Shown in pieces: positions 3,930-43,900 of a stretch of DNA of 56,335 nucleotides. Source of the stretch: a virus; IMG/VR virus record IMGVR_UViG_3300045988_137693, one strand, 5' to 3'. The translations under genes were made by a program, and so were the position numbers. Below the pieces are notes generated by a model that was given only the letters and a program-made list of their open reading frames with translations, was not told the origin of the DNA and did not search any database. Position 1 is the first letter of the stretch; each line of letters opens with the position of its first letter.

Positions 3930-3939
3930 ATTGTTCTAC

Positions 3940-3977: not shown

Positions 3978-4001
3978 CGATCGTTCATAAGAAAGGTTGT
4001 T

Positions 4002-6843: not shown

Positions 6844-7758
6844 ATGTCCGTTAAAAGTACATTGGTCAAAACCGCAGCTAAGAGCGGTCTCTTTCTGAAG
6901 AAACATAGCCCGGAAATCCTGACCTATTCTGGTCTGGTACTTGGCGTCGCCGCAACCGTCACCGCATGTCGGTCGACCATGCATATCGATGACGTGAAGA
7001 AGAATCATGAAACCGAGATGAGCCGCGTCGAAACCCTCGAAAAGATGGTGGACAACGGCGAGCTCGATGACGGCGATTTCACGGTCAATGAAGCGGCTTC
7101 GTCGAAGCAGATCATCTACATGCGTACCACCGTGGCTTATGCGAAGCTCTATGCTCCGACCATTATTCTGACCGGACTGAGCATCGCCTGCATTCTGTCG
7201 GCACACAACATCCTCCAGACTCGATACACGGCTGTGGCTTCGGCATTCGCTGCTGTAACCGCCAAGTTCAGCGATTACCGCGAACGTGTCGTAGCCCAGT
7301 ATGGCGAAGAGGTCGATCAGAAGTTCTATCAGAACATCGACACCGTCGAAGTCGCCGACGACAAAGGCAAGGTCATCGAGACCAAGAAGGAGCAGAACGT
7401 CCAGACACTGAGCCCGACCGATAAATGGTTCGGACCGGATTCTCAGATCTGGGATAACGAATCCCCGGATATGAATACCGTGATGCTGAAGTCCGCACTG
7501 GATCGTGCTCAGAACAAGCTCGATTACACCGGACATCTGTTCCTGAACGATGTCTATCGTCTGCTCGGTCTTCCTGATACCAAGGAAGGCGCCGTGCTCG
7601 GTTGGATCAATACGCCTGATCGCGATTCGATTGTCGACTTCGGCGTGTTCGGTTGCAGCGATGATCCCTGGGACAATGTCAAGGATTGCCCGTGGGATGG
7701 CAAGGAAGAGATCCTGCTTCAGTTCAACTGCGACGGCATCGTCTACGATCAGATCTGA
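6844..7758 (+). CDS. Membrane-anchored protein, paralog B of the 4002..4757 product
   Basis: N-terminal TM segment (ILTYSGLVLGVAATVTA) and conserved blocks shared with 4002..4757. Confidence 0.7.
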   Translation: MSVKSTLVKTAAKSGLFLKKHSPEILTYSGLVLGVAATVTACRSTMHIDDVKKNHETEMSRVETLEKMVDNGELDDGDFTVNEAASSKQIIYMRTTVAYAKLYAPTIILTGLSIACILSAHNILQTRYTAVASAFAAVTAKFSDYRERVVAQYGEEVDQKFYQNIDTVEVADDKGKVIETKKEQNVQTLSPTDKWFGPDSQIWDNESPDMNTVMLKSALDRAQNKLDYTGHLFLNDVYRLLGLPDTKEGAVLGWINTPDRDSIVDFGVFGCSDDPWDNVKDCPWDGKEEILLQFNCDGIVYDQI

Positions 7759-10041: not shown

Positions 10042-10053
10042 AAAGGAGTGGGT

Positions 10054-13000
10054 ATGGACCAAATACGAGTGACTGAAGTCAAAAGCACCAAAACCGCAAC
10101 CAAGGTCATTGCAAATCCTAGGGCCCGTGGATTCAAGGATCTTATTGTCAAGGGTGGACAGTTCTACGCCGTATATGATCCAGATACGCACCTGTGGTCC
10201 AGAAGTGTCGGCCGTCTCTCCGAACTCATTGATAGGGATATCAGCGAGTATATCGCAACGCATTCGGACAAGACCTTGACTCCGGAATACATGGACAATA
10301 TGTCCAATGGACAATGGAACCGATATTTGTCGCAACTGAAGAACCTCGATGACAGCAGCATCATGCTGGATCAGAAGGTTATATTTGACAACGACGAAGT
10401 CGATCGCGACGACTACGCCTCGTTCAAATTACCGTATGATCTCATCGAGGGTCCGACACCGAACTACGATCGCCTGATGGAAACGATCTATGACCCGGAC
10501 GAGCGTCGAAAACTCGAATGGGGCATAGGTCTGATCGTGGATGGTAAGGACCAGAAACGTATTCAGAAATTCTTCGCCATTACCGGTGCTCCCGGTACCG
10601 GTAAATCGACGATTCTGAACATCATCCAGGAACTGTTCGGGAAGTACGTTTCGTTCTTCAATGCCAAGGAACTTGGTCAGGGATATCAATTCGCCACTGC
10701 TGCGTTCAAAAACGCTCCGCTCATCGCCATTCAAAGCGACGGCGATCTCTCAAAGATCGATGATAATTCATTGTTGAACACCATTGTTTCGCATGAATAT
10801 ATCAAAGTCAATGAGAAAGGCGTCAAGCAGTATGATATTCCGATCAAGACGATGCTGTTCATGGCTTCGAATAAACCAGTGAAGATCACAGACTCGAAAT
10901 CGGGTCTGATTCGAAGGTTGATTGACGTCTATCCATCAGGACGAAAACTCAGCAATGCTGAATATTTCGAAGCCATGGACGGTATCAAATTCGAACTCGG
11001 TGCGATCGCCCACCATTGCCGAGAGGTCTATCAGGAAATGGGTCCGAACGCATATGGCAATTACATACCAACCGAAATGGTGGCCAGAACGAATGATATG
11101 TATTCGTTCTTGTCAAGCGTTCTCGACCAATTCGAAGATGACGATCATATCGATGGTCTCGAACTTTGGCGTCAATATAAGGTTTGGTGCGATGAAGGTA
11201 ACGTGACCATGCGCATGAAACGTGATGACTTCCTGTTCGAATTGTCATCATATTTCAACAAGACGACCGATAACATCGTCAATGGTCGCAAATCCACTCG
11301 TAACACCGGTTTCGAGGGAATCCGTTGGGATAAATTCGAGAAAGTGGAGAAACCGAAGCTGATCGAAGCGAGAAAACTCGAACTTAATTCGACCGATTCG
11401 ACTTTCGACCACATGGCTCAGGATTGGCCGGCCCAATACGCCGCCGATAATCCAACCGGAGGACCTCGGTTGCCTTGGGATCAGGTAACCACCACATTGA
11501 AAGATGTGGACACCACCAAACTGCATTGGGTACGAGTACCTGAGAATCATATCGTCATCGACTTTGATCTCAAGGGCGATGATGGCGAGAAGAGCCTGGA
11601 ACGCAATCTTGCCGAAGCTGCGAAGTATCCGCCGACGTATGCGGAATTGAGCAAATCCGGTAAGGGCGTGCACCTGCATTATATTTACGATGGTGACGTG
11701 ACGAGGCTCAAACCTCTGATCGACATCAACGTGGAATGCAAGGTGTATCGAGGGAAGTCGGCATTGCGAAGGAAACTCAGCACATGCAACGATCTCGAAG
11801 TCGCGCATATTTCCAGCGGTCTTCCTCTCAAAGGAGATAAAACCATGATCAATGAGAAAGCGATCAAAGATGAGCAGCATCTTCGCAATCTTATCAAAGG
11901 AAACCTAAGAAAGGAATATTGTCCCGGAACCAAGCCATCGATCGACTTCATCTGTAAGTTGCTGGACGAAGCATACGAGTCTGGCATCCAGTATAACGTC
12001 GAAGACATGCGTCTTGATATTCTCAATTTCGCCATGAACTCCACGCATAATCGAGATTATTGCATGAAGGTTGTGGCGAATATGAAGCTTCGTTCCGACG
12101 AACCCGACAGCTTGGAACCGCCGAAGCATACCGGGACACCTGATATTCTGACGTTCTACGACGTCGAGGTGTTCCCGAATCTGTTCATGATCTGCTTCAA
12201 AGACGCAGGTGATGAGAAGGATCATCCGGTGAAGACCTTGATCAATCCAGATCCGAAAGATGTTCGTAAGCTCTGCGGCAAGGCACTGGTCGGATTCAAC
12301 AACCGACGATACGACAATCATATGCTCTACGCATGGGGTTGGCTCGGTTATGACAACCAACAGCTCTACAACCTGTCTCAGGATATCGTGGCTGGTGGGC
12401 CTCGCAGTCGAAACGCCATGTTCCAGAATGCCTACAACATCTCCTATACGGATATCTACGACTTCTCCGCAAAGAAGCAGTCGTTGAAGAAGTGGGAGAT
12501 CGAACTCGGGATCGATCATCACGAACTCGGCATGCCGTGGGACAAGCCGGTCGATCCGAAACTCTGGGATCTGGTGCAATCATATTGCGAGGATGATGTC
12601 CGAGCGACGGAAGCGGTGTTCAACCATCTTCATGAAGATTTCGTGGCCCGTCAAGGTCTGGCGAATCTGTCCGGCCTCACGCCGAATGATTCGACGAATC
12701 AACATACGGCCCAGATCATATTCGGAGACGCGAAGAATCCGCAGAAGGAATTCCCGTTCCCGGATCTGAGCGAAACCTTTCCCGGGTATACCTTCGACAA
12801 ATTCGCTGATAAAGATCACAAATCCAAGTATTTGGGCGAGTATCCTTCCGAAGGCGGATATGTGTGGGTATACGGTATGGCTAACGGCGACAATGGTCCA
12901 TATTACGGACGTCAGATCCAATGGTCCATGACCGGGAAGGACCGACTCGAACGATATCGTGAGGTCTATCGATCTCAGGATATGGATTTCGACACCATGC

Positions 13001-14154
13001 ACCCCGATCTGGCGAAGCGTCTCGAAGGATATTCATATGACGGTGCTGATCAGTTCATGCCTGAACTTCCAGACAAGACGCTCGGTGGTATGTTCGGCAA
13101 CGTCGGTTTGCTTGATGTGACCAGTCTGCACCCGTCGAGTCTTGAGGACATGAATTTCTTTGGTCCATACACCAAACGATTCAGCGACATCAAGGCCGCT
13201 CGTGTTGATATCAAGCACGGTGATCTCGAATCCGCTCGTCGACGTATGGATGGTGCTTTGGCTCCACTGCTTAAGGAGGGTGAAAACACCAAGTCGCTTG
13301 CACAGGCACTGAAGATCGTGATCAATTCGGTATACGGTTTGACCAGTGCGAAGTTCCCGACAAAGTTCAACGATGTCGGGAATGGAGCCAACGATCGCAA
13401 TGTCGACAACAAGGTCGCGAAACGCGGCGCCTTGTTCATGCTTCTGCTCAAGCAAAAGGTTATGGAGCTTGGCTACACAGTCGTGCATATCAAAACCGAT
13501 TCGATCAAGATAGCCGATATCGATGAATATGTTGTGACATTTGTCAATGACATGGGAGCGAAATATGGCTACGGATTCGAACTCGAAGCGATCTACGACA
13601 AGATGTGTATCGTCAACAAAGCGACGTACATCGCCCATCATTGTTACGGCGACGACGGGCACGACGCCGCATCGCATGGTGGTTGGGCGGCAACGGGTGC
13701 ACAGTTCGCAGTGCCCTACGTCTTCAAGACGCTGTTCTCTCATGAAACGATTGATTTCAAGGATCTTTGCGAAACCAAATCCGCCACGACATCGATCTAC
13801 CTAGACTTCAACGAGGGGCTACCCGAGGACGAACATCGCTATGATTTCGTCGGCAAGGTAAGCGCCTTCAGTCCGGTCCAACCGGGTTGTGGCGGAGGCC
13901 TGCTGGTCCGTGACAACGGCAACGGCGGTTACGCCGCGCTGTCCGGCACCAAAGGTTATCGCTGGAAGGAATCGAGCGTTCTCCGAGACGGTCACAAACA
14001 AGATGAAGTCGATTACACCTACTACGAACATCTCGCCGATGAGGCACGAGATGATATTTCGCAGTATGGTGATTTCGACTGGCTGGTAAGCGGCGAACCG
14101 TATGTTTCGCCGAATCCTGGAAGCAATAATCTGGTTGCTTCCTTGACTCGATAA
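10054..14154 (+). CDS. Fused replicase: D5/SF3-like P-loop NTPase + archaeo-eukaryotic (prim-pol type) primase + family-B DNA polymerase with 3'-5' exonuclease
   Basis: Walker A ITGAPGTGKST. Primase signatures VIDFDLKGDDGEKS and SKSGKGVHLHY. Exonuclease motifs FYDVEVF, FNNRRYDNHMLY, SYCEDDVRAT. PolB motifs A LLDVTSLHPSS, B KIVINSVYG, C HIKTDS. Confidence 0.9.
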   Translation: MDQIRVTEVKSTKTATKVIANPRARGFKDLIVKGGQFYAVYDPDTHLWSRSVGRLSELIDRDISEYIATHSDKTLTPEYMDNMSNGQWNRYLSQLKNLDDSSIMLDQKVIFDNDEVDRDDYASFKLPYDLIEGPTPNYDRLMETIYDPDERRKLEWGIGLIVDGKDQKRIQKFFAITGAPGTGKSTILNIIQELFGKYVSFFNAKELGQGYQFATAAFKNAPLIAIQSDGDLSKIDDNSLLNTIVSHEYIKVNEKGVKQYDIPIKTMLFMASNKPVKITDSKSGLIRRLIDVYPSGRKLSNAEYFEAMDGIKFELGAIAHHCREVYQEMGPNAYGNYIPTEMVARTNDMYSFLSSVLDQFEDDDHIDGLELWRQYKVWCDEGNVTMRMKRDDFLFELSSYFNKTTDNIVNGRKSTRNTGFEGIRWDKFEKVEKPKLIEARKLELNSTDSTFDHMAQDWPAQYAADNPTGGPRLPWDQVTTTLKDVDTTKLHWVRVPENHIVIDFDLKGDDGEKSLERNLAEAAKYPPTYAELSKSGKGVHLHYIYDGDVTRLKPLIDINVECKVYRGKSALRRKLSTCNDLEVAHISSGLPLKGDKTMINEKAIKDEQHLRNLIKGNLRKEYCPGTKPSIDFICKLLDEAYESGIQYNVEDMRLDILNFAMNSTHNRDYCMKVVANMKLRSDEPDSLEPPKHTGTPDILTFYDVEVFPNLFMICFKDAGDEKDHPVKTLINPDPKDVRKLCGKALVGFNNRRYDNHMLYAWGWLGYDNQQLYNLSQDIVAGGPRSRNAMFQNAYNISYTDIYDFSAKKQSLKKWEIELGIDHHELGMPWDKPVDPKLWDLVQSYCEDDVRATEAVFNHLHEDFVARQGLANLSGLTPNDSTNQHTAQIIFGDAKNPQKEFPFPDLSETFPGYTFDKFADKDHKSKYLGEYPSEGGYVWVYGMANGDNGPYYGRQIQWSMTGKDRLERYREVYRSQDMDFDTMHPDLAKRLEGYSYDGADQFMPELPDKTLGGMFGNVGLLDVTSLHPSSLEDMNFFGPYTKRFSDIKAARVDIKHGDLESARRRMDGALAPLLKEGENTKSLAQALKIVINSVYGLTSAKFPTKFNDVGNGANDRNVDNKVAKRGALFMLLLKQKVMELGYTVVHIKTDSIKIADIDEYVVTFVNDMGAKYGYGFELEAIYDKMCIVNKATYIAHHCYGDDGHDAASHGGWAATGAQFAVPYVFKTLFSHETIDFKDLCETKSATTSIYLDFNEGLPEDEHRYDFVGKVSAFSPVQPGCGGGLLVRDNGNGGYAALSGTKGYRWKESSVLRDGHKQDEVDYTYYEHLADEARDDISQYGDFDWLVSGEPYVSPNPGSNNLVASLTR

Positions 14155-15122: not shown

Positions 15123-15202
15123 TGTTATATTTACTCATAGGTGCCGTATTGGTTATGATTTTCGCAGCGTGGTTCCCGTTGTGGTGGGATGATCATTGTT
15201 AA
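15122..15202 (+). CDS. Possible small hydrophobic peptide (26 aa)
   Basis: ATG overlaps the previous stop by one base (TGATG, A at 15122 shared): MLYLLIGAVLVMIFAAWFPLWWDDHC. Confidence 0.3.
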   Translation: MLYLLIGAVLVMIFAAWFPLWWDDHC

Positions 15203-15232
15203 CGCGAACCAGACATGGCCTTTAATGAGAAT
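15203..15232 (+). promoter_or_regulatory. Conserved promoter-like box, copy 7
   Basis: cgcgaaccagacatggCCTTTAATGAgaat. Confidence 0.55.
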
Positions 15233-15630: not shown

Positions 15631-15638
15631 CATTCATA

Positions 15639-15676
15639 AAGAGTGGACCGCACATGCGGTCTGCTCTTTGTCTTTT
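15639..15676 (+). terminator. Intrinsic terminator, related stem-loop (CCGCACATGCGG core)
   Basis: agagtggaccgcacatgcggtctgctctttgtctttt. Confidence 0.7.
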
Positions 15677-15685
15677 GGCTATATT

Positions 15686-15715
15686 CGCGAACCAGACATG
15701 TCCTTTAATGAGAAC
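15686..15715 (+). promoter_or_regulatory. Conserved promoter-like box, copy 8
   Basis: cgcgaaccagacatgtCCTTTAATGAgaac. Confidence 0.55.
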
Positions 15716-15951: not shown

Positions 15952-15955
15952 TCAT

Positions 15956-15993
15956 AAGCCTAAGTCGCACATGCGGCTTTGGCTTTGCATTTT
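15956..15993 (+). terminator. Intrinsic terminator, conserved stem-loop family
   Basis: aagcctaagtcgcacatgcggctttggctttgcatttt. Confidence 0.75.
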
Positions 15994-17704: not shown

Positions 17705-18271
17705 ATGTCAGACACAACTTTTTCGCCGCTCATAACCCTGTCCAGCACATCATTCTCACCGATCGTGATGTATAACGCCATGTCTCTTACTGTCGAACAG
17801 ATGCGAGCATGTCAATGTGATACGCCTTTGGCCATGACCAAGCCGATGGCCGTTGCCAATAAAGGCCGCATGTACGCCTGCACCAGCTGGTGTCCGTTCT
17901 GCGGAGCGACCCAACACGTCACGGCGGATGCCAAGATGTTTCCGAGCACCGCTCCTGCGGATGTTTGGAGACTGGATGCGGACAAGATCTACGAATTCGT
18001 CTCGAGGATCAACGATCTTGGATATTTGCCGAAACATGCCGGTTCCGATGATCTCGCATGGACATTCCCGCAGAGCTATTCCGATGGAACGTTCTCAACG
18101 AACGTCTTCAACATCGCCGTCGGCCGTGGTCTCACGGTCCGGGCTCCGGAGTGCTATATTCTGCGAGACGAACAGCTCACGGTTTTCGATACCAAACTGC
18201 TGGATGAATTCGACCAGCTCGGAATCCTTGGCCTGATGTTTCCGAAGGAGCCGGCCCATGCCAACGCCTGA
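17705..18271 (+). CDS. Hypothetical Cys-rich protein (188 aa)
   Basis: aaaggag RBS then ATG 17705; CQC...CTSWCPFC. Confidence 0.6.
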   Translation: MSDTTFSPLITLSSTSFSPIVMYNAMSLTVEQMRACQCDTPLAMTKPMAVANKGRMYACTSWCPFCGATQHVTADAKMFPSTAPADVWRLDADKIYEFVSRINDLGYLPKHAGSDDLAWTFPQSYSDGTFSTNVFNIAVGRGLTVRAPECYILRDEQLTVFDTKLLDEFDQLGILGLMFPKEPAHANA

Positions 18272-18743
18272 CGAATATCGCAGCGCACGGTGCCTGCTTG
18301 GTCTCACACAGCATCAAGTCGGCAAGATGATGAAGATCCGTCGTGAGACCGTGGGACAGCTGGAATCCATCAATCCCGACACGCCACGCACCTGGGAGGC
18401 GTATACACGCTACTACGACGTGTGGCTGCGCGAGTATGCCCGTATCAAGCATCCTGACCTGTTATTCGCCGTCGAGGCGATTCTCAACGGTAACCGTACG
18501 GTCATAGCCTGGCTTGGCGAACAACCCGATCCTGACAACGATACTCGTCACGGACGTCATCGTCCGAATCGTATTGTGGAGCTCGATCTGACATTTCCGA
18601 CCATTGCGGAGACGTCGCAATATCTCATCAATGCTGGCTATACCAATGCTGATCCACATACGGTCCAGACCAAGATCTCGCAGTTACTGAACGGGTATAG
18701 GAAACAACAGACATTATACGGCTTCCACTTCGAAGACGTATGA
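18258..18743 (+). CDS. DNA-binding protein: N-terminal XRE-like HTH plus a C-terminal NUMOD-like helix-turn-helix
   Basis: ARCLLGLTQHQVGKMMKIRRETVGQLE, and FPTIAETSQYL...QTKISQLLNGYRKQQTLYGFHF. Confidence 0.6.
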   Translation: MPTPDEYRSARCLLGLTQHQVGKMMKIRRETVGQLESINPDTPRTWEAYTRYYDVWLREYARIKHPDLLFAVEAILNGNRTVIAWLGEQPDPDNDTRHGRHRPNRIVELDLTFPTIAETSQYLINAGYTNADPHTVQTKISQLLNGYRKQQTLYGFHFEDV

Positions 18744-22059: not shown

Positions 22060-22668
22060 ATGCGTATCAACGAATTCGAACTGATCAACCCCATGAGTGA
22101 TGTACAGAATACCATTACAAGATTGGTGAATCATCGTGGGTCATGCGATGATCTGTCGCCGAGACATGAGATCATCATGAGTGATATTCTGCTGTTGCAG
22201 ACGGATCTTGCACATCCTGAGATATCATATGATATGACCGAGGCGAAGATCAATGCGTATTGTCCCCGCTGTAGGAGACATGGGTCTGGATGGATCGAAA
22301 CCAATGGATGGTTTTCAGCGGTGTCGCCATCACGCGGAGTAGTGATTCGTCATGCGATGGATGAGCTTCCTGCTCGTATGGATAGGCATGGTCGTGTTTG
22401 CGGGCATCATCGTTTGATGATGTCTTCCGCGGTTCGATCGAAGGATATCGCATTCCATGTCAGGGAGGAGAACACCAGGAATTATATCTGGTTCAAGAAG
22501 CGTAAGGCTTTGGCGAAGCAGTGGTTTCCGTTGAGTAGCGGTGACGAACAGTACCATTTGGTATGGTGTCCGGACTGTTTTGCGATGACTTGCGTGGACG
22601 TCGGAAAGATGTCTTTTACGCGGTACGACCCCTCAAACGCCAGTTTTAGAGGGGACGAATGGTACTAA
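22060..22668 (+). CDS. CxxC-motif protein (two CxxC pairs, 202 aa)
   Basis: AYCPRCRRHG and VWCPDCFAM. Confidence 0.6.
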   Translation: MRINEFELINPMSDVQNTITRLVNHRGSCDDLSPRHEIIMSDILLLQTDLAHPEISYDMTEAKINAYCPRCRRHGSGWIETNGWFSAVSPSRGVVIRHAMDELPARMDRHGRVCGHHRLMMSSAVRSKDIAFHVREENTRNYIWFKKRKALAKQWFPLSSGDEQYHLVWCPDCFAMTCVDVGKMSFTRYDPSNASFRGDEWY

Positions 22669-22682
22669 AAAGCACTTCCGAA

Positions 22683-23052
22683 TGTGTACAATTTGTGTGA
22701 CAAAAGCAGTTCTAAATGTGTACAATTTGTGTGACAAAATCGATGTGTGTGTACAATTTGTGTGACATGAGCGAAAATGCCCTTGATGCGGTAAAAACGC
22801 CAAAATCGGCTTTGTCACACAAATTGTACACACAAATCGGTTTTGTCACACAAATTGTACACATTTGAAAACGTCTTTTAGGGCCTGAAAACGTTGAAAT
22901 TTCAACGTTTTTGGGATTTTGAGGGTGTTTTTCTGTGTGTACAATTTCTGTGACGTACTTCTTATTCCGGTGAAAAAAGAAATATAATCATTATAATATA
23001 AAAATAAGTAAAGTATAACCTACGTCACACAAATTGTACACATTTGAAAACC
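22683..23052. repeat. Iteron cluster, palindrome and AT-rich tract; putative replication origin or regulatory hub
   Basis: The 20-mer TGTGTACAATTTGTGTGACA occurs on + at 22683, 22717 and 22748, and degenerate at 22936. Its reverse complement occurs at 22813, 22844 and 23023. A 24-bp perfect palindrome aaaacgttgaaatttcaacgtttt lies at 22888-22911, and an AT-rich tract at 22971-23020. Confidence 0.6.
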
Positions 23053-23919: not shown

Positions 23920-23941
23920 TTTGTGCACAAATGTGCACAAA
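23920..23941. promoter_or_regulatory. Tandem palindromic operator-like site TTGTGCACAA / TGTGCACAA
   Basis: tttgtgcacaaatgtgcacaaa, just upstream of cataat/tagaat -10-like hexamers. Related to the TGTGTACAA core of the iterons. Confidence 0.45.
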
Positions 23942-24024
23942 CATCGTCTCGCACATTTCCCATAATGGATAGAATATACATATAACTACAGGTATCTCCC
24001 GTATTTTACGGTCGGAGGTTTTCC

Positions 24025-24324
24025 ATGGTTTTAGAGCGAGACTTCCAGCGCAAACTGGTCAAGCGCTTGAGGACAGAGATTCCAGGATCCATTGTCATGA
24101 AAGCCGATGCGAACCAAGTACAAGGTATTCCGGATCTCTTGATCCTTGCTCATGGCCGATTCGCTTCACTGGAAGTCAAACGCTCTGCTACCGCATCACA
24201 TCGACCTAATCAGGATCACTTCGTTCAGAAGATCAACGACGATGGCGGTTTTGCTTCGTTCGTCGATCCTTCGAATGAAGACGATGTGGTGGACCAAGTC
24301 AAGCGATATCTATCCAAAGCCTAG
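24025..24324 (+). CDS. VRR-NUC domain nuclease (PD-(D/E)xK fold)
   Basis: GIPDLLILAHGRFASLEVK catalytic pattern. Confidence 0.7.
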   Translation: MVLERDFQRKLVKRLRTEIPGSIVMKADANQVQGIPDLLILAHGRFASLEVKRSATASHRPNQDHFVQKINDDGGFASFVDPSNEDDVVDQVKRYLSKA

Positions 24325-24355: not shown

Positions 24356-24949
24356 ATGACATTCACGTTCAATCAGCATACTGACCTTCAAGGTAAGCAC
24401 GCATATTTGAGTGCCAGTCATCATGTCTGGCTCAACTATGACGATGAGCATTTCAAGGATATCTTCTATTCCAATCTCATGAAGGAACGTGGCACACAGC
24501 TTCACGCCTTCGCCGAGTTTGCGAATAGGATGGGCCGGAAGATGCCGCGCAATCATGAGACCATCAACGAGTTCATCAATGATGGCCTTGGATACAACAT
24601 GAGCCCTGAAGTGGTGCTCTATTACAGCGAGTATTGTTTCGGGACTGCCGACCTTATCGGTTTTGATCCGAAGAAGAAACTGCTTCGAGTGTTTGATCTC
24701 AAGACCGGTCAGAAGGATGTGCTCGAGTTCGGACAGCTGCATGTGTATTGCGCTCTGTTCTGTCTCGAGTACAACATCAAACCGGACGATATCAATTTCG
24801 AATGCCGACTCTATCAGAATGATGAAGTTCGCATTGAAGAGTTTACTGATCCGGAAACCATCAAGGATATTATGGATCTTATCGTTCACGATGATAAGAT
24901 GATTCGTGAACTTCGCGCCGAAGCGAAAGCTAATAAATTGATCTTCTAG
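24356..24949 (+). CDS. RecB/Cas4-like PD-(D/E)xK exonuclease
   Basis: TADLIGF...LRVFDLKTGQ, then GQLHVYCALF (QLxxY-like). Confidence 0.7.
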   Translation: MTFTFNQHTDLQGKHAYLSASHHVWLNYDDEHFKDIFYSNLMKERGTQLHAFAEFANRMGRKMPRNHETINEFINDGLGYNMSPEVVLYYSEYCFGTADLIGFDPKKKLLRVFDLKTGQKDVLEFGQLHVYCALFCLEYNIKPDDINFECRLYQNDEVRIEEFTDPETIKDIMDLIVHDDKMIRELRAEAKANKLIF

Positions 24950-24962
24950 AAAGGAGCGGATT

Positions 24963-27764
24963 ATGGCTGAAGAGTCATATTCTGGTGATGACGAGTCGTT
25001 GTATGACTTCGAGCATTACGGTACTCCACATCAGGGTGCCACTCCGCATTCCGGACGGTACAAATGGGGTTCTGGCGATGAGGATTCCTTGACCAGAGCC
25101 AATGGCTTGCTGGGTCAAGTGGCTCGGCTCAAAGAGCAAGGGATCAAGAATTCAACAGAGATCGCACGAGCGCTTGGCATGACTACCACCGAGTACCGAG
25201 CACGATATTCCATGGCCTGGAATGAAGCCGAGAACTATACTCGTAACCGAGCGCTGAACCTTCAGAAGCAAGGCTGGGGTGCTACAGCTATCGGCAAAGA
25301 GCTTGGACGTTCTGAATCGACAGTCCGTGGCTGGCTCAAAGATGGTCGCGAGGTTCGCAATGATATCGCAACAGATATCGCTGAGAAACTCATGGCCTCT
25401 GTTCCGAAGAACGGTGGTCTTGATATCGGTAAATCCCAGGAATTGTATCTGGGGGCATCTGCCGATAAGCTCAAGGTTGCAGTGCAGATGGCAGTCGATA
25501 AGGGCTATGAAGTCCACTACATGTATGAGAATCAGCTCGGTACCGGTCCTGGCCAGAAGACGACCCTTAAGCTGTTGACCGCTCCTGGTGTCAAGGTTTC
25601 TGGCCCTGAAGGTCTGTATGCTCATCGTGAGCGTATCGCTTTCTTGGCAAAAAATCTTGACGACATTCCCGAAGGATCTTCCGGAGCACTGAAGCCTCCA
25701 GTATCGATCGATAGCAAGCGAGTTAAGATCGTTTATGCTGAAGACAAGTTTGCTGGATTCAAGGGCGTCGAACGAGATGGCGTGATGCTGATTAATCCCA
25801 AGGCTCCTGATCTTCAGTTGCCGGATGGTAAACGTTACGCTCAGGTTCGAATTGCCGTTGATGGCACTCACTACCTCAAGGGTATGGCGCTCGTTGGCGA
25901 TCCTCGGTCGTTCCCTCCTGGCGTCGATGTGGCCTTCTGCACCAACAAGCACAAGGGCACTCCGAAGATGGATGTTCTGAAGAAGATGCAGACTATCAAG
26001 TCTACCAACGGAACAGAAGTCATCGATACTGAGAACCCGTTCAAGGCCGCAGTGCGTTTGCAGCCTATGTATGTGGATCCGAAGACCGGTAAGAAGAAGC
26101 AATCCGCCCTGAATATTCTGAACACCGAAGGCGATTGGGATGGTTGGTCGAAGAATCTTCCATCTCAGATGCTTTCCAAGCAGGAACCTTCATTTGCTTC
26201 TCAGCAACTCGGTATCGCTCTGGATCGTTCTCGATTGAATCTGAAAGAAATCAAATCGTTGACCAATCCAGTCGTCAAGCAAAAGCTTCTTCAAGAGTTT
26301 GCTGACGAATGCGATTCCGCTGCCGTTTCTTTGAAGGCCGCTGCCGTCCCACGTCAGAAGTCTCATGTGATCCTTCCGATTAATTCGTTAAGTGATCGTG
26401 AGATCTATGCGCCGAACTACCGAAATGGCGAGAAGGTGATGCTGGTTCGTTATCCGCACGCTGGTCGATTTGAGATGCCTGAACTTGTGGTGAACAATCG
26501 AAACAAGGAAGGTCTTAAATACATCGGCAATGCGAAGGACGCAGTCGGCATTAATTCCAAAGTAGCCGAACGTCTATCAGGTGCTGACTTTGACGGAGAT
26601 ACTGTTCAGGTAATTCCGAATAAAAGTGGTCAGATTAAGAATGCCGCTCCATTGAAAGGACTTCAGGGATTCGATCCCAAAGAATCATACGCTTTGCCAA
26701 AAGACATCAAGCCTAACGACAAACGTTTGATTTCTCCTGAGATGAAGCAGCGTCAGATGGGTATCGTATCCAATCTGATTACCGATATGACAATCAAAGG
26801 CGCTCGTCCTGACGAATTGGTTCGAGCAGTTCGCCATTCCATGGTAGTGATTGATTCCGAAAAGCATAAGCTTGATTGGAAACAATCCGAGACTGATAAT
26901 AACATCAAGGCTCTCAAGGAGAAGTTCCAAAGTGGTGGAGCTTCTACACTTGTTTCAAGAGCTAAGGGTGTGGTCCGTCTTCCGGAGCGTAAGCCCCGAT
27001 CCATGAAGAATGGCGGTCCGATCGATCCTGAGACCGGTGAGAAGCGTTACGAACTTACCGGCGAGTCTCACAGTCGAGCAGTTCGTAATTCGAAGGGTGA
27101 GGTTGTTCGTTATGAAACAGTCCCCAACCTTACGAAGTCTACGAAACTTGCCGAGGCTAAAGATGCTAGGGAACTTTCTTCTGGTACTTTGATGGAATCT
27201 ATTTATGCTCGTTACTCTAACGGCATGAAAGATTTGGGTAACCAATCTCGAAAGGCCTACCTCCAGGCGGAGCCTTTCAAAGTAGACCCCCAGGCGAGAA
27301 AAACATACGCCCCTGAAGTTAAGAAGATGGTAGCCCAGCTCAATGAAGCCAAGAAGAACCAACCTCTAGAACGCCAGGCTCAGGTCATAGCCAACGAGAG
27401 GCTTCGCGCCATCAAGGAAGATCATCCTGACTATGACAAGGAAGATCTCAAGAAGGCTGGACAAAAAGAGCTCAAACGAGCTAGAGCTATTGTTGGTATT
27501 CAATCCAAGAGGGTGGATCTTACGGATCGAGACTGGGAGGCAATTCAAGCAAGGGCCATCTCAGCTAACAGACTTCGTGAGATACTGCAATACGCTGATC
27601 CCGATCGAGTTCGAGAACTGGCTACTCCGAGAAAGAAAGAAAAGCTTCCTTCTTGGGCTATTGCTAGAGCGAAATCGCTCATGAATGCTGGCTATACCAA
27701 TGCAGAAGTCGCAGATGCTTTGGGTATTTCGACTTCAACATTGTCTGAGAACCTTGGGAAGTGA
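24963..27764 (+). CDS. Candidate single-subunit two-barrel RNA polymerase (RdRP/QDE-1/YonO-like catalytic motif) flanked by HTH motifs
   Basis: VMLVRYPHAGRFEMPELVV...AERLSGADFDGDTVQVIPN (DFDGD at 26586-26600) parallels R-x-P...GGDLDGDTY of RdRP-family enzymes and NADFDGD of beta-prime. HTH-like motifs: STEIARALGMTTTEY, ATAIGKELGRSESTVRGWL, TNAEVADALGISTSTLSENL. Confidence 0.6.
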   Translation: MAEESYSGDDESLYDFEHYGTPHQGATPHSGRYKWGSGDEDSLTRANGLLGQVARLKEQGIKNSTEIARALGMTTTEYRARYSMAWNEAENYTRNRALNLQKQGWGATAIGKELGRSESTVRGWLKDGREVRNDIATDIAEKLMASVPKNGGLDIGKSQELYLGASADKLKVAVQMAVDKGYEVHYMYENQLGTGPGQKTTLKLLTAPGVKVSGPEGLYAHRERIAFLAKNLDDIPEGSSGALKPPVSIDSKRVKIVYAEDKFAGFKGVERDGVMLINPKAPDLQLPDGKRYAQVRIAVDGTHYLKGMALVGDPRSFPPGVDVAFCTNKHKGTPKMDVLKKMQTIKSTNGTEVIDTENPFKAAVRLQPMYVDPKTGKKKQSALNILNTEGDWDGWSKNLPSQMLSKQEPSFASQQLGIALDRSRLNLKEIKSLTNPVVKQKLLQEFADECDSAAVSLKAAAVPRQKSHVILPINSLSDREIYAPNYRNGEKVMLVRYPHAGRFEMPELVVNNRNKEGLKYIGNAKDAVGINSKVAERLSGADFDGDTVQVIPNKSGQIKNAAPLKGLQGFDPKESYALPKDIKPNDKRLISPEMKQRQMGIVSNLITDMTIKGARPDELVRAVRHSMVVIDSEKHKLDWKQSETDNNIKALKEKFQSGGASTLVSRAKGVVRLPERKPRSMKNGGPIDPETGEKRYELTGESHSRAVRNSKGEVVRYETVPNLTKSTKLAEAKDARELSSGTLMESIYARYSNGMKDLGNQSRKAYLQAEPFKVDPQARKTYAPEVKKMVAQLNEAKKNQPLERQAQVIANERLRAIKEDHPDYDKEDLKKAGQKELKRARAIVGIQSKRVDLTDRDWEAIQARAISANRLREILQYADPDRVRELATPRKKEKLPSWAIARAKSLMNAGYTNAEVADALGISTSTLSENLGK

Positions 27765-27770: not shown

Positions 27771-28076
27771 ATGACATTATCACCACTAGAGCAAGCATGT
27801 CTTAGGCATGATGTATTGGTAACTACAGTGGACAATCCTATCAATCCATTCGTTGATTTCGAAGGATGGATGAATCTAGACATTGCCATGGGCTATGATA
27901 CATGTGGTCTAGTTAGCCAAATGTTCATGGGTTATGATAACATGTCTGATGAGGATCAAGCAATCGAGTATGCTCGAATGATTCGAGATCTTTTTGCTCA
28001 TGATCCTTTGGGTGTGTACACATTAGCCAAGCGTCCATCATGGCGTGAAGTTCCATCTGCTGCATCAAACGAATAG
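27771..28076 (+). CDS. Hypothetical protein (101 aa)
   Basis: ORF closely following the previous gene. Confidence 0.55.
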   Translation: MTLSPLEQACLRHDVLVTTVDNPINPFVDFEGWMNLDIAMGYDTCGLVSQMFMGYDNMSDEDQAIEYARMIRDLFAHDPLGVYTLAKRPSWREVPSAASNE

Positions 28077-28740
28077 CATGATGCGATTGCATGATGTGAT
28101 TGCATCATGTTGCTTGTCATCAACAACATATGCAATGACAAACATAACAACAATGCATGATGCTTGATGTATGTTACATGATGAATGATGAATGATAAGA
28201 TTCGTATAAGCAATGAATCACATTCGCTCATATGAATCTTATCATTCATCAATCATTCATCAATCATTCATCAATCGTTGTCAATCATCGTTGTTTATTG
28301 TCATTGCAAATCGAAATCAATCAAATGCGAATGAATTAACTTTCATTCAACTGCAACCAACTATTGGATGAATTGTAAATGTAATTTATAATTCATAGCA
28401 AAGAATAATTTTGAATTTAGATTCGTTCTAATTCAAAATTGTTGAGATGCCCAACCCTAGGATCTCTTTTGAGATACCGGGGGAGGGGGTCGTGAAAAAC
28501 ACACCCCCTATGGCATCGCCCGACAACTCGAAAATACCCCGCGGGGGATATTTTGGAATTGCTTTTTAGCTCTCGTAGGGTTCTCCGGGGGTGTTGGGTG
28601 CTCTCCGAATTAGTTTCCGATACATGTACCGCTGCGAAACGGTGGAAACACTCCTTGGATCGAGCATGATTCTCCCCAATGCCCCTAGAAAACTCTGCGA
28701 TAGCGTTGAGAATCCGCTAATAAAAGGAGATGATGTCCCT
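28077..28740. other. Non-coding, repeat-dense region upstream of terS; putative packaging recognition (cos/pac) region
   Basis: GCATGATG repeats at 28073-28112. 17-bp perfect inverted repeat at 28187-28203 / 28234-28250. ATCATTCATCA x3 at 28241-28273. More than 10 (A)TGAAT/ATTCAT motifs. 11-bp inverted repeat at 28407-28417 / 28430-28440. G5/C5 hairpin at 28484-28509. Palindrome CCCCGCGGGG at 28537-28546. Confidence 0.55.
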
Positions 28741-30374: not shown

Positions 30375-30734
30375 ATGGGTACACTATTACAATCTTCGAT
30401 CCTGAATACGATCAAGCAGATGCTTGGCATCGATGAAACATTTAATGGTTTCGATCCGGAAATTATCATTGATATCAATTCGGCATTGATGACTCTGCAT
30501 CAGTTAGGTATTGGTCCATCGGACGGATTTCAGATCGCTTCTGAGAGTGATATCTGGGAGGATCTTACAGTAGATGTGTCACAACTTAACGGGATTAAAA
30601 CCTATATCTATCTCAAGACCAGACTGCTGTTTGATCCTCCATCAAATTCATTCCTCGTGCAATCTATGGAAAAGCAACTTCAAGAGCTTGAATGGCGATT
30701 GAACGTTAATGCGGAAGGAGCATTCGATGGATAA
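30375..30734 (+). CDS. Possible head-tail connector (gp6-like) protein
   Basis: N-terminal ILNTIKQMLGIDETFNGFDPEIIIDINSAL pattern, typical of the gp6-like connector family. Confidence 0.45.
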   Translation: MGTLLQSSILNTIKQMLGIDETFNGFDPEIIIDINSALMTLHQLGIGPSDGFQIASESDIWEDLTVDVSQLNGIKTYIYLKTRLLFDPPSNSFLVQSMEKQLQELEWRLNVNAEGAFDG

Positions 30735-31269
30735 CGACATTGAGGCTGTTGATCCTGTCGAGCAATGTTTTGAACATTTCGGCATCCTCGGTATGAAATG
30801 GGGACGTCGACGTTCGACCGAGGAACTTCAAGCCGCTCGCGGCAAGAAAGATTGGGAAGGCGATTCCGACAAGAATTCCGGTAAGGACTCAACTGAAGGA
30901 TCTCAGTCGCCTAGGAAAGATTCAGCTGAAGGTCCCAAGGTCGTTCGCAAAGAATCCGACCATGAGAAATACCAGCGTCTTTCTCGCATGAAGGTTCAGG
31001 ATATGTCCACTCAAGAGATTAACGATTGGGTGAATCGAACCAATGCCATAGCCAATTATAATCGATTGACGGCTCAGCAGAAAGAGGCATCACGATCCAA
31101 AGGCCAGAAATTCATTCATTTCATGTTGGATACCGGAAAATCCATGGCCATCGATGCGGGCAAAGAAATCGCTAAAGATTATCTTAAGACGGCTCTCAAA
31201 GGATATGCCGAAAGCAAGATCGCGTCTTCTACACCACGACATGCGAAGTCGAAGAAGAAAAAGAAGTAG
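30727..31269 (+). CDS. Hypothetical basic protein with an N-terminal FEHFG..GMKWG motif
   Basis: 180-aa ORF with a Lys-rich C-terminus. Confidence 0.55.
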   Translation: MDNDIEAVDPVEQCFEHFGILGMKWGRRRSTEELQAARGKKDWEGDSDKNSGKDSTEGSQSPRKDSAEGPKVVRKESDHEKYQRLSRMKVQDMSTQEINDWVNRTNAIANYNRLTAQQKEASRSKGQKFIHFMLDTGKSMAIDAGKEIAKDYLKTALKGYAESKIASSTPRHAKSKKKKK

Positions 31270-40542: not shown

Positions 40543-40926
40543 ATGACGGGTATCAGGGTTGAGGTCAATGGCGACTTCAGTGGCCTTGATCGTTTTATCA
40601 CTAACATCAAAGAGCAACGGTATCTCAAAGTACTGGATCGAATCGGACGTCGCGGCGTTGATGCTTTGTCCAACGCCACACCTGTTGATAGTGGCGCGAC
40701 AGCCACTGCCTGGGGGTATGAGGTCCATAGGTCGAAACATCGATCCGAAATTATTTTTACCAATTCCAACGTCAACGATGGCGTGAACATCGCCATTATT
40801 CTCCAGTATGGACACGGCACCGGAACTGGTGGATACGTCGCTGGACGCGATTACATCAACCCGGCGCTTGCAAAAACATTTGATCAATTGGCCGATGAGG
40901 CCTGGAGGGCGGTGACTAATGGCTAA
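40543..40926 (+). CDS. HK97 gp10-like tail component
   Basis: ALSNATPVDSGATATAWGYEV...ILQYGHGT pattern. Confidence 0.5.
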   Translation: MTGIRVEVNGDFSGLDRFITNIKEQRYLKVLDRIGRRGVDALSNATPVDSGATATAWGYEVHRSKHRSEIIFTNSNVNDGVNIAIILQYGHGTGTGGYVAGRDYINPALAKTFDQLADEAWRAVTNG

Positions 40927-43900
40927 CATCGACGAACGTGTGGTCAAGCTGTCCATGGACGATTCGTCCTTGCAGCAAGGCGTATCTCGTGTTACCAAGG
41001 CTTTGGAGCAGCTCAAGAAAGCGTTCAATTTCAGCGACACCAAGTCGTTTGAAGAGCTCGATAAAGCTGCCAAGAAAGTCAAGTTTGATAGCGTCTCCAA
41101 GTCTGCATCCGATATGCAGAAGGATGTCAGCAAAGCCACATCCAAGGCGGCTGACGACTTTGCCGAGATGGGTTCGAGCGCTCAGAAGAGCGTCCAACAG
41201 ATTGGCGCCGCTTCCGATAATGTCAATTTAACTGGTGTTGCATCCGCTGCGAACAAGATGTCCGATCAGGTGCAGCAGTCTGCCGCTGAAGCAAACTCCG
41301 CGATCGGAAAGATTGGCACCAATACCGTTGGCATTCAACAAACCGTTGATGCGATTGACGGCATTAATGATGCGGCCAATCGTGTCGATTTGAGCCCGAT
41401 TCAGAAGGGTGTTGAAAACGTCAAAATGGGAATCTCTTCCATGAGGGATTCCTTGACGAACAGTGTGAATACCTTCAAGGCCACACCTATCGGCGAGCAG
41501 CTTGATGCGGTTCAACCGCATTTCAAGGCCCTTGAGGCCATCGGCGTTGTTGCCATGGGCAATCTTGCGGCTAAAGCGGCTACGTATGGCATGCAACTTG
41601 CCAGTAATCTGACTAATGGCATTCGTAGTGGTTTCGAAGAGTATGAGACTCAGCTGAATTCGGTTCAGACCATTCTTGCCAACACCCAGAAAGAGGGAGC
41701 CAACCTCACTCAGGTCAATACTGCTCTGAATCAGCTCAATACCTACGCTGATAAGACCATTTATAATTTCACCGAAATGACCAGGAACATCGGTACGTTC
41801 ACAGCTGCCGGCGTTGATCTTCAGACTTCGGTGAATTCGATCAAGGGTATTGCTAACCTCGCGGCCATTTCTGGCTCAAGTTCTGCTCAGGCCTCGACTG
41901 CTATGTATCAGCTATCCCAGGCATTGGCCACTGGTACGGTCAAGCTCATGGACTGGAACTCGGTCGTCAACGCCGGTATGGGCGGTCAGGTCTTTCAGGA
42001 TCTGTTGGTTCAGACTTCTGAGAAACTTCAAACTGGCGCTAAGCAGTATATCGCTGCTGAGGGTTCCTTCCGCGACTCGCTTCAGAAAGGTTGGCTGACT
42101 TCGGATGTTCTGACCCAGTCATTGAACATCCTGGCCATGGACATCACCGATGTCGAGAAGGCCGTTCAGTCGCTCGTCTCAAAGGGCTACACCGAGGAAG
42201 AAGCTCGTCAGCTTGTCCAGCTCGCCCAGACCGCTCAGGATGCGGCGACCAAGGTCAAGACATTCTCGCAGCTTATCGATACGGCCAAGGAAGCAGTCGG
42301 TTCCGGTTGGTCTCAGTCGATGCAAATCCTGTTTGGTGATTTCGAAGAAGCCAAGGATCTGTGGACCGGTGTTTCCGATGAGATCAATAATATCATCAAC
42401 GCCCAATCGCAGGCTCGAAACCAGCTACTGTCTTCCGGATTCTCGTCCGGATACAAGCAGCTGGTGAATCAAGGAATCGTCGATACCCAAAGCTTCCAGG
42501 ATATTCTTACGAATCTTGGCAATCGAGATTACGTTAGCGGGCTTATTAATCAATATGGTAGCTTTGAGAAGTCGCTTCATGCCGGTTGGTTGACTGCCGG
42601 AATGCTGAAAGACGGCGTGGCTCAGCTCACCCAAAAAGTTGATGGCTATGATGATGCGACCAAACAAAACCTTGGCATCACCAACGAACAGATCAATCAG
42701 CTTCATGCATTAAATGCAGGTCTTCAAAATGGCAGTATTTCCGCTGATGATTTCGCCAAGAAGATGCAGCGGATGTCCGGTCGAGAGAACGTCATCCAGG
42801 GTCTTGCCAATATTTGGAACTCTCTGAAGACGATCATTCAGGCGGTGGGCAAGGCTTGGGATGAAGTCATGCCTAGCATGAGTGGTGATACCATTTATGC
42901 GCTTACTGAAGCTTTCCGCAAGTTTACCGAAGGGCTGAAACCTTCGCCTCAGTTGCTGAATGTCATCACTACTGCCACCAAAGGCGTCGCTACGGCGTTC
43001 AAAGCGTTTCTTGGTGTTGTCGGCTTAGCAGCCAAAGGCTTCGGCACATTGCTGGGCTTTGCTGGTAAAGTCGCTGGATCATTCATTAATATCGCTTCAT
43101 CGGCTATTAATGGCGCCAAAGCATTCGCCGAATATGTCAAGCAATCCAAGGTTGTTACCAATGCAGTCAAGCTATGGGAAGCTTCATTCTCATCGTTTGG
43201 AACGGTCCTCAAGACCATTGGCGATTCTATCAGCGGCGTATTCGATGGCCTGTTCGATGGCGCGAAGAAAGGCACTTCCGGATTCCCCGATATTCTCGGG
43301 ATCATCAGCAAGACCCTGGCTGGTTGCGCTCAAGAAGTCAATAATTACGGCACTGAATTCCAGACAGCCTTCCAAGCGAAGTTCGGCTCTGTTCCGGAAA
43401 TCGCTCAGAAGGTTTCGGATAAGGTTTCTTCTGCGATCCAATCACTTCGCCCAGCGTTCAATTGGATTGGCGATCGTCTTCAGGAAATCGGAGAAGCCAT
43501 TCAGCGATTCTTCGGCGATCTCAACGGCAAGATTACCCTCGATCAGATTCTGTCGTTGATCAATGGCGGCTTATTGACCGGTGTTCTTGTTGGACTCAGA
43601 AAGTTCATCAAGGGACTCAATGAAGTTGGCGATGATCTTGAGAAGTCGACCTTCAAAGGCGCTCTGAAGAAGACACTCGACGATATCGGTAATTCGTTTA
43701 AGGACTTCGCCAAGTCGTTTAAGATCGTTTCGATCACCGCCATCGCTGCGTCGATAAAGTTGCTTGCTGACGCCTTAACGCAATTGTCGACCATCAGGAC
43801 CGAAAAGATCATGCCGGCACTTGGCGCTATGACCGCCATCATTACTGTCATGACTGGCATGATGGCTGGACTTGCTGCTTTGGCGGAAGTAACCAACAAA

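Follow-up and report, generated by a model that had tools for sequence, protein, structure and literature searches.

Two-barrel RNA polymerases (RNAPs) are the enzymes of all cellular transcription, and their minimal single-chain versions (YonO, gp64, gp66 and QDE-1) are prized for what they offer on core mechanism and evolution. YonO, from the Bacillus prophage SPbeta, is a DNA-dependent RNAP for the SPbeta late genes. In Thermus phage P23-45, gp64 is encoded at the end of the genome that is first to enter the cell; the enzyme recognises a conserved promoter motif of its own and uses it to transcribe early and middle genes. Koert et al. (bioRxiv 10.1101/842583) described another family as a signature gene of an actinophage-Firmicutes phage supercluster. 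Using a family alignment they obtained an HHpred probability of 95.7% for RNA-dependent RNA polymerase (RdRP), and they reported a DxDGD loop shared with YonO and with the RNAPs of crAss-like phages, and helix-turn-helix (HTH) domains at both ends of the protein. Here we analyse a gene of this kind in the IMG/VR virus record IMGVR_UViG_3300045988_137693, a stretch of 56,335 nucleotides (hereafter the window). The gene is the open reading frame (ORF) at 24963-27764 on the + strand, which starts with ATG and encodes a single chain of 933 amino acids (aa) and 105 kDa. Evidence from the predicted fold and from the active-site residues indicates that this gene very probably encodes a single-chain two-barrel RNAP.

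The catalytic block of the protein consists of an upstream part, GEKVMLVRYPHAGRFEMPELVV (residues 489-510), and a downstream part, AERLSGADFDGDTVQVIPN (residues 535-553), with the pattern RYPH…GADFDGD running across both. A first-pass annotation, made from the letters of the window and its translated ORFs, had proposed a YonO-like two-barrel RNAP with an R-x-P segment followed about 40 aa later by DFDGD, and with three HTH segments. The block is present as described, and 46 residues separate R496 from D542. In an alignment of 40 homologs (~50-73% identity), R496, P498, H499, G501, D542, F543, D544, G545 and D546 show no variation, and this invariance of R-x-P-H and DFDGD means that DFDGD is not a chance pentapeptide. 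The polymerase ORF is also the sole carrier of a DxD[GA]D motif among ORFs of at least 90 aa in all three frames of the + strand, where almost all genes lie. Eight residues are universal to all two-barrel RNAPs, including Rpb1 R446/P448 and Rpb2 K979/K987 and D837 (Ruprich-Robert & Thuriaux, PMC2919709). Five of these eight, those of the beta-prime-like barrel, correspond to R-x-P-H/D-F-D-G-D residues that are invariant here. The AlphaFold model places six strands in this barrel (466-472, 480-482, 491-495, 507-510, 527-530 and 547-552), with D542, D544 and D546 in the loop preceding the final strand.

Upstream of this barrel, the strand-rich region assigned to the beta-like barrel contains invariant columns at R296, K306-G307, K329, K340, D272, D322 and D355 among the same homologs. 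For the two basic residues and the aspartate expected of this barrel these are candidates only: R296, K306-G307, K329 and K340 for the former, and D272, D322 or D355 for the latter. The segment YLKGMAL, which includes K306-G307, aligns to WVKGLLV of YonO, the YonO KG motif. Downstream of the catalytic barrel, two long modelled helices carry the invariant sequence MGxVSNLITDM (M599, G600 and N604-M609 in the 40 homologs), which is collinear with NIGEISNNITK of YonO in an hhalign comparison.

A full-length AlphaFold2 model built from the 40-sequence alignment had a mean predicted local distance difference test score (pLDDT) of 81 and a predicted template modelling score (pTM) of 0.70. A core-only model of residues 245-700 reached a pLDDT of 88.7 and a pTM of 0.80, and the core is the best-predicted part of the polymerase model. 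When the full model was compared with the PDB using Foldseek, the 15 best matches all had a probability of 1.00 and were all two-barrel RNAPs, led by QDE-1 (4.9e-9), P74-26 gp62 (2e-7) and RDR2, with the largest subunits of multisubunit RNAPs next. The core model gave 24 matches with E<=9e-7, again all two-barrel RNAPs, over ~430-530 aligned columns and thus essentially the whole core. Its template modelling score was up to 0.51 to QDE-1, and P23-45 gp64 and P74-26 gp62 followed at ~6e-10 with 16% identity. Later matches were gp66 of a crAss-like phage, Pol IV NRPD1 (113 columns, 2.4 A), AR9 beta-prime and bacterial beta-prime. A library of viral structures returned models of phage 'RNA-dependent RNA polymerase' and RNAP proteins of crAss-like phages. 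The first-pass annotation had named a Toprim-like fold, or any fold other than a double-psi beta-barrel (DPBB), around residues 490-560 as the outcome that would count against its proposal. No Toprim fold was found around the DxD motif, either in Pfam or among the top 50 Foldseek matches listed for the PDB searches. With no Toprim-like or non-DPBB neighbour, and with significant matches to solved structures confined to two-barrel RNAPs, the proposed two-barrel assignment stands, supported also by the invariant catalytic residues. Searches of the PDB by sequence, with the single protein or with the family profile, returned HTH matches only, plus an insignificant beta-prime match.

The structural relatives resemble the window protein to different degrees. 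The best neighbours are QDE-1 of Neurospora and plant RDR2 (2J7N, 7Y7P, 7W82, 7EU1; PF05183), with E down to 1e-10 over a 456-residue core. They share a single chain, a beta-like barrel before a beta-prime-like barrel and the DxDGD loop. However, identity is only 10-16%, and these eukaryotic enzymes lack HTH modules, use RNA templates and have a role in RNA interference (RNAi). P23-45 gp64 and P74-26 gp62 (8F72, 8F5M) are likewise phage single-chain two-barrel RNAPs, superposing with a root-mean-square deviation of 6.7 A, and the gp64 gene also sits at a genome end. Unlike the window protein, they are of ~590 aa with no HTH modules reported, and they are not detectable from it by sequence profile. 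P23-45 also has a second virion RNAP, fused to its tape measure, whereas the window phage has none: we found no polymerase domain in its 2,562-aa tape measure protein and no second polymerase in the window. The beta-prime and Rpb1 subunits of multisubunit RNAPs (NADFDGD) have a near-identical loop to GADFDGD and a local fold match, with 18% identity for Pol IV NRPD1. However, the window protein holds both barrels in one 933-aa chain, and most domains of multisubunit RNAPs have no counterpart in it. No additional RNAP subunits or sigma factor were found to accompany it. A check of 20 small ORFs likewise revealed no sigma factor and only a weak HTH protein at 18258-18743.

At the family level, the protein matches PHROG 4291 ('RNA-dependent RNA polymerase') over almost its full length (E=0, 1063 bits, residues 17-932 against positions 13-906 of 909 in the profile). 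The Pfam RdRP family PF05183 is matched below threshold (15.7 bits against a gathering score of 23.8, E=0.0064, residues 533-640 only), and only HTH domains pass Pfam thresholds. YonO belongs elsewhere. We fetched and scanned SPbeta YonO and found that its family is PHROG 8308, which matches residues 474-554 of the window protein with E=6.1e-5. When the window family was compared with a 25-sequence YonO alignment by hhalign, E was 0.12 and the probability 0.5%, with R-x-PH, DxDGD and (M/I)GxxSNxIT in register. The same comparison with the lone YonO sequence gave nothing, and sub-alignments yielded only KG, R-x-PH and DxDGD fragments. YonO and the window protein are both single-chain two-barrel proteins with the same motif order, a similar spacing from the arginine to the aspartate (43 residues against 46 here), a KG motif in the first barrel and a gene upstream of late genes. 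They differ in that YonO lacks HTH modules or any other Pfam domain, and in that its C-terminal region has an invariant CxxC…CxxC (C799, C802, C816, C819) where the window protein has an HTH and no such cysteines. The different PHROG, the profile match of only ~80 residues and the unlike architecture rule out membership of the YonO family. On sequence grounds, the label 'YonO-like' proposed at first is thus apt for the superfamily, through the shared motifs, and not for the family.

The PHROG 4291 family is widespread. Using tblastn we detected it in 250 phage records at 36-50% identity, with hosts or sources including Arthrobacter, Gordonia, Streptomyces, Lactococcus, Curtobacterium, Rhodococcus, Faecalibacterium, Bifidobacterium and human-associated siphoviruses, and the protein database holds more than 7,897 metagenomic clusters of it. 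The closest isolate match is Bifidobacterium phage BitterVaud1, with 50% identity; other members are AUV56548.1 of Faecalibacterium phage FP_oengus, gp55 of Streptomyces phage Scap1 and gp99 of Arthrobacter phage NapoleonB. An identical polymerase protein is present on at least ten metagenomic contigs, including NCBI GCA_900526745.1. At the nucleotide level no phage record matches: megablast of the gene gave a 54-nt match only, and 25 kb of the window gave none. Record labels vary between 'HTH DNA-binding', used in most GenBank records, 'RNA-dependent RNA polymerase' and 'hypothetical', and NCBIfam has no model for either the PHROG 4291 family or YonO. The relationship to the supercluster polymerases is one of membership rather than mere resemblance, as the terminal HTHs, the DxDGD loop and the penultimate place at the right end are the same and the sequence alone differs. 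Judged by its sequence, the window gene is therefore a further member of a family already predicted in PHROGs, in RefSeq annotations and by Koert et al., and the novelty implied by the first-pass annotation does not hold.

The HTH modules distinguish this family from YonO. The three HTH strings of the first-pass annotation were located at residues 64-78, 107-125 and 912-931. Pfam HTH_23 scored above its gathering threshold on two stretches (best 97-126), HTH_3 matched residues 908-928, and the AlphaFold model has helical bundles at residues 49-126 and 897-931. The remark that such modules were not known from YonO also proved correct, as they are family-wide in the polymerase homologs and absent from YonO. 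A hidden Markov model (HMM) built from the family N-terminus re-matches HTH2 and HTH3 of the same proteins, and so the three HTHs look paralogous. The recognition helix of HTH1 is kept in all five phages compared, and HTH3 is conserved in the same number. The nearest PDB sequences to HTH2 are region 4 of extracytoplasmic function (ECF) sigma factors and resolvase HTHs, with E ~0.03-0.08. As the first-pass annotation suggested, these modules could provide built-in promoter recognition.

Ahead of HTH1 lies a conserved peptide with near-invariant positions H18, G20, S30, G31, R32, Y33, G36, S37 and G38; the pLDDT of residues 1-41 is below 50. This peptide (HYGxKRxSGRYPWGSG) looks similar to the Pfam DUF7211 N-terminal motif (EHFGxxGMKWG), which is present on small proteins flanking TerL at 30709-31269 in the window and in loci L001 (6970-7392 and 9169-9672) and L004 (2256-2636), a similarity without statistical support. 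With no Pfam match, and only E ~0.65 from an HMM of the N-termini, we rejected its identification as a DUF7211 module as unproven.

The position of the gene is also conserved. The window has an exact terminal overlap of 85 nt (1-85 = 56251-56335), and since its last 85 nt repeat its first 85 nt it represents a complete genome of 56,250 bp that was assembled as a circle. Almost all of its genes share one strand. Gene order is kept with Scap1 and NapoleonB: primase-polymerase, single-strand annealing protein (SSAP), helicase, VRR-Nuc endonuclease, exonuclease, polymerase, small ORF and genome end. Downstream of the polymerase gene are the small ORF, the cohesive-end site (cos), a dCTP deaminase gene and TerL. 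With helicase, endonuclease and exonuclease upstream, the gene thus lies between the replication and the late genes, as first described. Only the small ORF separates the polymerase gene from the physical right end, and this penultimate place is the one it occupies across the family. We place this end at ~28525, so that the gene stops ~760 nt short of it, and many IMG/VR contigs end 150-600 nt past the polymerase gene. The cos layout is common to phages of Actinobacteria and Firmicutes, with a G-run, ~20 nt, a C-run, TGCATCGCC, ~5 nt and the end. By analogy with lambda, the right end, packaged last, would enter the cell first. Cluster AM phages are described as having 9-base 3' cohesive ends. 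Coordinates of the features are collected in Table 1.

Table 1. Features of the polymerase gene, its operon and the promoter-like motif, in positions of the whole window
Feature	Position	Strand	Basis and remarks
VRR-Nuc/Holliday-junction-resolvase-like endonuclease, first gene of the right-end operon	24025..24324	+	phrog_93, phrog_5702
Exonuclease, 13-nt gap before the polymerase gene	24365..24949	+	phrog_3953 E=2.9e-61; synteny
Single-chain two-barrel RNA polymerase-like protein, 933 aa	24963..27764	+	PHROG 4291 full-length E=0; Foldseek neighbours all two-barrel RNAPs
Conserved N-terminal peptide, residues ~15-40, predicted disordered	25005..25082	+	consensus xHYG(V/I/T)KR(R/H)SGRYPWGSGE(D/N)PYQ
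HTH1, residues ~49-85, recognition helix MTTTEYR	25107..25217	+	second HTH_23 stretch; model helices 49-58, 64-70, 75-102
HTH2, residues ~94-127, recognition helix SESTVRGW	25242..25343	+	HTH_23 E=4.8e-10 (97-126), HTH_38, Terminase_5
First (beta-like) barrel region, residues ~250-390	25710..26132	+	strand-rich, pLDDT 87-97; Foldseek alignments span the whole core
Second (beta-prime-like) double-psi barrel, residues ~463-553, with R496-x-P498-H499 and metal-binding loop	26349..26621	+	model strands, invariance, profile match
DFDGD aspartate triad D542, D544, D546 (predicted catalytic)	26586..26600	+	sequence itself; invariant in 40 homologs
Two long helices after the catalytic barrel, residues 592-635, candidate bridge-helix-like element	26736..26867	+	model helices 592-611, 616-635
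HTH3, extreme C-terminus, residues ~897-931, helix ISTSTLSE	27651..27755	+	HTH_3, HTH_7, GerE, Sigma70_r4; model helices 897-908, 913-920, 924-931
Small conserved ORF, last before cos	27771..28076	+	phrog_4303; like small ORFs after the polymerase in BitterVaud1, Scap1, P092, NapoleonB
cos region, CCGGGGGAGGGGG…CCCCC…GGCATCGCC + ~5 nt	28477..28530	+	aligned with the true right ends of NapoleonB, Scap1 and P092 and the BitterVaud1 equivalent
Best motif copy, TCGCGAACCAGACATGTCCTTTAATGA	15685..15711	+	motif scan
Other motif copies	12-38 (=56262-56288), 370-396, 625-651, 908-934, 1496-1522, 3613-3639, 15202-15228, 55193-55219, 55954-55980	+	
Degenerate motif copy, CATCGTCTCGC-ACAT-TTCC-CATAAT-GG, before the endonuclease-exonuclease-polymerase operon, 1,010 nt upstream of the polymerase start	23942..23968	+	positional scan

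A promoter-like motif of ~27 nt, TCGCRA-N5-ACAT-N4-TWTAATGA, occurs strictly on the + strand of the window. Here it takes the form TCGCGAA-N4-ACATGnCC-TTTAATGA, includes the element TATAATGA and is present in ten + strand copies; matches in the window number 12, against 1.17 expected from shuffling. Each of the ten copies lies 12-25 nt upstream of a ribosome-binding site, and the copies cluster at 55.2-3.6 kb and 15.2-15.7 kb, ahead of small early-looking genes of unknown function. A conserved hairpin with a T-run (…AGTCGCACATGCGGCT…TTTATATTT) is found at 328-366, 1377-1415, 3939-3977, 15638-15676, 15955-15993 and 56219-56257, and many motif copies are directly 3' of such a hairpin, giving terminator-promoter cassettes around small genes. 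The motif recurs, with its register kept and always on the gene strand, in BitterVaud1 (TCGCGA…ACATCGCTTATAATGA), Scap1 (TCGCAAG…ACATGCnTTATAGTGA), NapoleonB (TCGCGTAAATTACAAGGGCTATAATGA) and Lactococcus P092 (TTTTAAGTTTTACATACCCTATAATGA), whereas in SPbeta, used as a control, it does not rise above expectation. In 84 polymerase loci totalling 1.12 Mb, we counted 57 occurrences of the motif core on the gene strand and a single one on the opposite strand. About half of the distinct loci have a motif copy 860-1,220 nt upstream of the polymerase start, ahead of the endonuclease-exonuclease-polymerase operon.

The relation of this motif to host promoters is mixed. Sigma-70-family factors need -11 A and -7 T. 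The ten early copies in the window read TTTAAT (or TAATGA), with no reading that has both of these bases, whereas the copy ahead of the polymerase operon retains a sigma-70-compatible CATAAT. The motif has no -35 element at sigma-70 spacing and its upstream half varies by lineage; the copies in Lactococcus P092 have neither a -35 nor an extended -10 element. A scan with the sigma-70 consensus was uninformative, with 18 sites against 17.4 expected.

Given the fold and the conservation of the active site, we consider it highly likely that the protein is an active two-barrel polymerase. Its beta-like barrel (~250-390) and beta-prime-like barrel (~463-553) would form one active site, with the catalytic Mg2+ held by D542, D544 and D546. 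The likeliest job for such an enzyme in a double-stranded DNA (dsDNA) siphophage would be DNA-templated transcription of phage genes. A DNA template is favoured because YonO, gp64 and gp66 are DNA-dependent, because the phage has a primase-polymerase of its own, and because HTHs of the dsDNA type fit this role. We therefore regard a DNA-dependent phage transcriptase of the two-barrel type as the probable identity of the protein, with a confidence that falls short of that in its catalytic activity. In the model we propose, the three HTH modules would tether the enzyme to specific dsDNA and so replace a sigma factor. Host RNAP would fire the polymerase operon from the motif copy that keeps CATAAT, and the phage enzyme would then take over at TCGCRA-N5-ACAT-N4-TWTAATGA sites, which would result in a cascade like that of T7 or that of P23-45 gp64. 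Assignment of the ~27-nt motif as the promoter of the phage polymerase is tentative, as is the timing that this order of events implies. In its favour are the length of the motif, the missing -35 element, the lineage-dependent upstream half, the -10 readings of the ten early copies against the CATAAT ahead of the polymerase operon, and the lack of a sigma-like factor among the 20 small ORFs. We are more doubtful of a fully self-contained machine, in which one chain would read a ~27-bp promoter through its three HTHs, amplify its own operon and drive the non-structural genes. A bolder variant is that the conserved, disordered N-terminal peptide serves as a capsid-targeting signal, such that the enzyme may be injected with the DNA.

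Several observations weigh against this model of a phage transcriptase acting at the motif. The candidate first basic residue of the beta-like barrel is R296 and not a lysine, and the catalytic lysines are not assigned individually; the nearest structural relatives, QDE-1 and RDR2, are RNA-templated enzymes. If the enzyme needs the motif, the polymerase operon depends on its own product. The family-wide consensus of the motif includes TATAAT, which matches the sigma-70 -10 hexamer perfectly, and the early cassettes are closed by hairpin and T-run terminators; both traits are typical of early promoters of host RNAP. Our scan of the window detected no motif copy ahead of the structural genes, and late transcription is thus unexplained by the motif model. 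Covariation between HTH2 and the upstream half-site (ESSIR and TCGCGTA in NapoleonB, PGSVT and TTTTAAG in P092) only weakly suggests that the motif is the promoter of the enzyme: TCGC is missing from all four lineages whose HTH2 helix diverges, but also from several in which this helix is canonical. Finally, we found no biochemical, transcriptomic or proteomic study of any family member in the searchable literature, where searches for virion proteomics (ReqiPepy6) and for accounts of the repeats also gave nothing relevant.

Many of these observations would be accommodated if the motif were an early promoter of host RNAP and the enzyme, like YonO, transcribed the ~27 kb of packaging, structural and lysis genes (28.7-55.5 kb) as one long operon from a single late promoter near cos. 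The first-pass annotation had similarly envisaged an enzyme driving a distinct transcription class, which would be the late one; the only conserved promoter-like motif that we found precedes early-looking genes and the polymerase operon. YonO does transcribe the SPbeta late genes and is encoded directly upstream of that late operon, much as the gene here adjoins cos and the late genes in all relatives. The TATAAT consensus and the intrinsic terminators of the early cassettes would suit host transcription, and the polymerase operon would itself be among its targets in the distinct loci, about half of them, where it is under the motif. The late block is almost gapless and devoid of motif copies, as would suit a highly processive enzyme, and the cos flanks are conserved across the family together with the HTH1 and HTH3 helices. 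However, when we compared the cos-proximal regions of five phages, the stretch from cos to the first late gene yielded no convincing shared promoter element; a GC hairpin and T-run follow cos, and then nothing clearly promoter-like. Recognition of the ten early copies by the host is moreover doubtful, since they lack -11 A, and the P092 copies have neither a -35 nor an extended -10 element. This late-gene role competes with the reading of the motif as the promoter of the enzyme; we regard it as somewhat less likely than that reading and about as doubtful as the fully self-contained machine.

Roles other than DNA-templated transcription have much less in their favour. The polymerase could use transcripts of the phage or of the host as templates for dsRNA or antisense RNA, with regulation or counter-defence as conceivable purposes, as its closest solved structures, the weak Pfam RdRP match and the RefSeq and PHROG name 'RNA-dependent RNA polymerase' would suggest. 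That name comes from the Pfam family and not from an assay, however, and the phage members that have been assayed (YonO, gp64 and gp66) are DNA-dependent; DNA targeting also agrees better with three dsDNA-type HTHs and with the fixed position of the gene in the genome of a dsDNA phage. QDE-1, too, has DNA-dependent activity (PMC9508822). An RNA-templated role is accordingly improbable. To our knowledge, no two-barrel RNAP acts as a terminase component. Even so, a function in replication or packaging could be imagined, in which the enzyme supplies an origin with primers or R-loops (an iteron-like array lies at 22.67-23.04 kb, 2 kb upstream) or uses its HTHs to bind cos and works together with terminase, by analogy with T7 RNAP at the concatemer junction. 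The gene is always beside cos, HTH2 matches Pfam Terminase_5, the C-terminus weakly matches a small-terminase PHROG, and the N-terminal peptide resembles DUF7211 of the TerL-flanking proteins. Yet the terminase-type matches are generic HTH matches, the DUF7211 resemblance is insignificant, and the primase-polymerase fusion means that the two-barrel enzyme is not needed as a phage primase; we find this role very improbable. Least probable of all is a DNA-binding regulator with a catalytically dead polymerase-like core, in line with the SEA-PHAGES label 'helix-turn-helix DNA-binding domain protein' and with the fact that most GenBank records name only an HTH protein and only HTH domains exceed Pfam thresholds. 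A decayed active site would not be expected to keep the metal triad, R-x-P-H and many core residues unchanged among homologs that have diverged so far, and the core is the part of the model predicted best.

Other features of the window were recorded alongside the polymerase locus. Directly after cos (28526-28570) there is a conserved GC palindrome and T-run, CCCCGCGGGGGATATTTT, that resembles an intrinsic terminator. The region from the last ORF to cos (28077-28476) is AT-rich, with short repeats (CATGATG, and TCATTCATCAA in three copies) and a large imperfect palindrome near 28215; this block is missing from BitterVaud1 and NapoleonB. A second AT-rich gap (22668-23043, 31% GC) contains TGTGTACAATTTGTGTGAC in four direct and three inverted copies and may be an iteron array (origin) or an operator array. 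A related sequence, TTGTGCACAAATGTGCACAA, lies at 23920-23941, just ahead of the motif copy of the polymerase operon, and the equivalent of the gap in BitterVaud1 holds a different palindrome array, AAAATTCTCAnnnGAGAATTTT, in four copies. The primase-polymerase fusion is a 1,368-aa protein (10048-14154, phrog_4210) kept in Scap1 and NapoleonB, and the tape measure gene (40919-48607) has internal tandem repeats of 189-192 nt (44384-44820 and 46700-47083). A tail-assembly-chaperone-like protein (5043-5501; Pfam Phage_TAC_17, E=1e-24) is encoded inside the non-structural region, and two paralogous phrog_2152 genes (3963-4757 and 6844-7758) flank that region.

Since the window gene is an ordinary member of a predicted family, the finding itself is confirmatory. 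What may be new is the conserved promoter-like motif, its position ahead of the polymerase operon and a cos conserved across host phyla; the papers we could search mention none of the three. The family is abundant, uncharacterised and mechanistically attractive, with hosts in Actinobacteria and Firmicutes that include those of gut and soil, and the motif now gives concrete experimental targets. Among solved structures it is closest to the eukaryotic RNAi polymerases, and among the single-chain versions compared here only the PHROG 4291 family has fused DNA-binding modules. This raises the questions of how a sigma-less two-barrel enzyme finds its promoters and whether it could support orthogonal transcription in Streptomyces or Bifidobacterium. 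If the self-contained machine were real, it would give the first example of a two-barrel RNAP that carries its own stand-in for sigma, together with a portable system for orthogonal expression in Actinobacteria and Firmicutes, and it would belong to an abundant phage lineage structurally near the eukaryotic RNAi polymerases.

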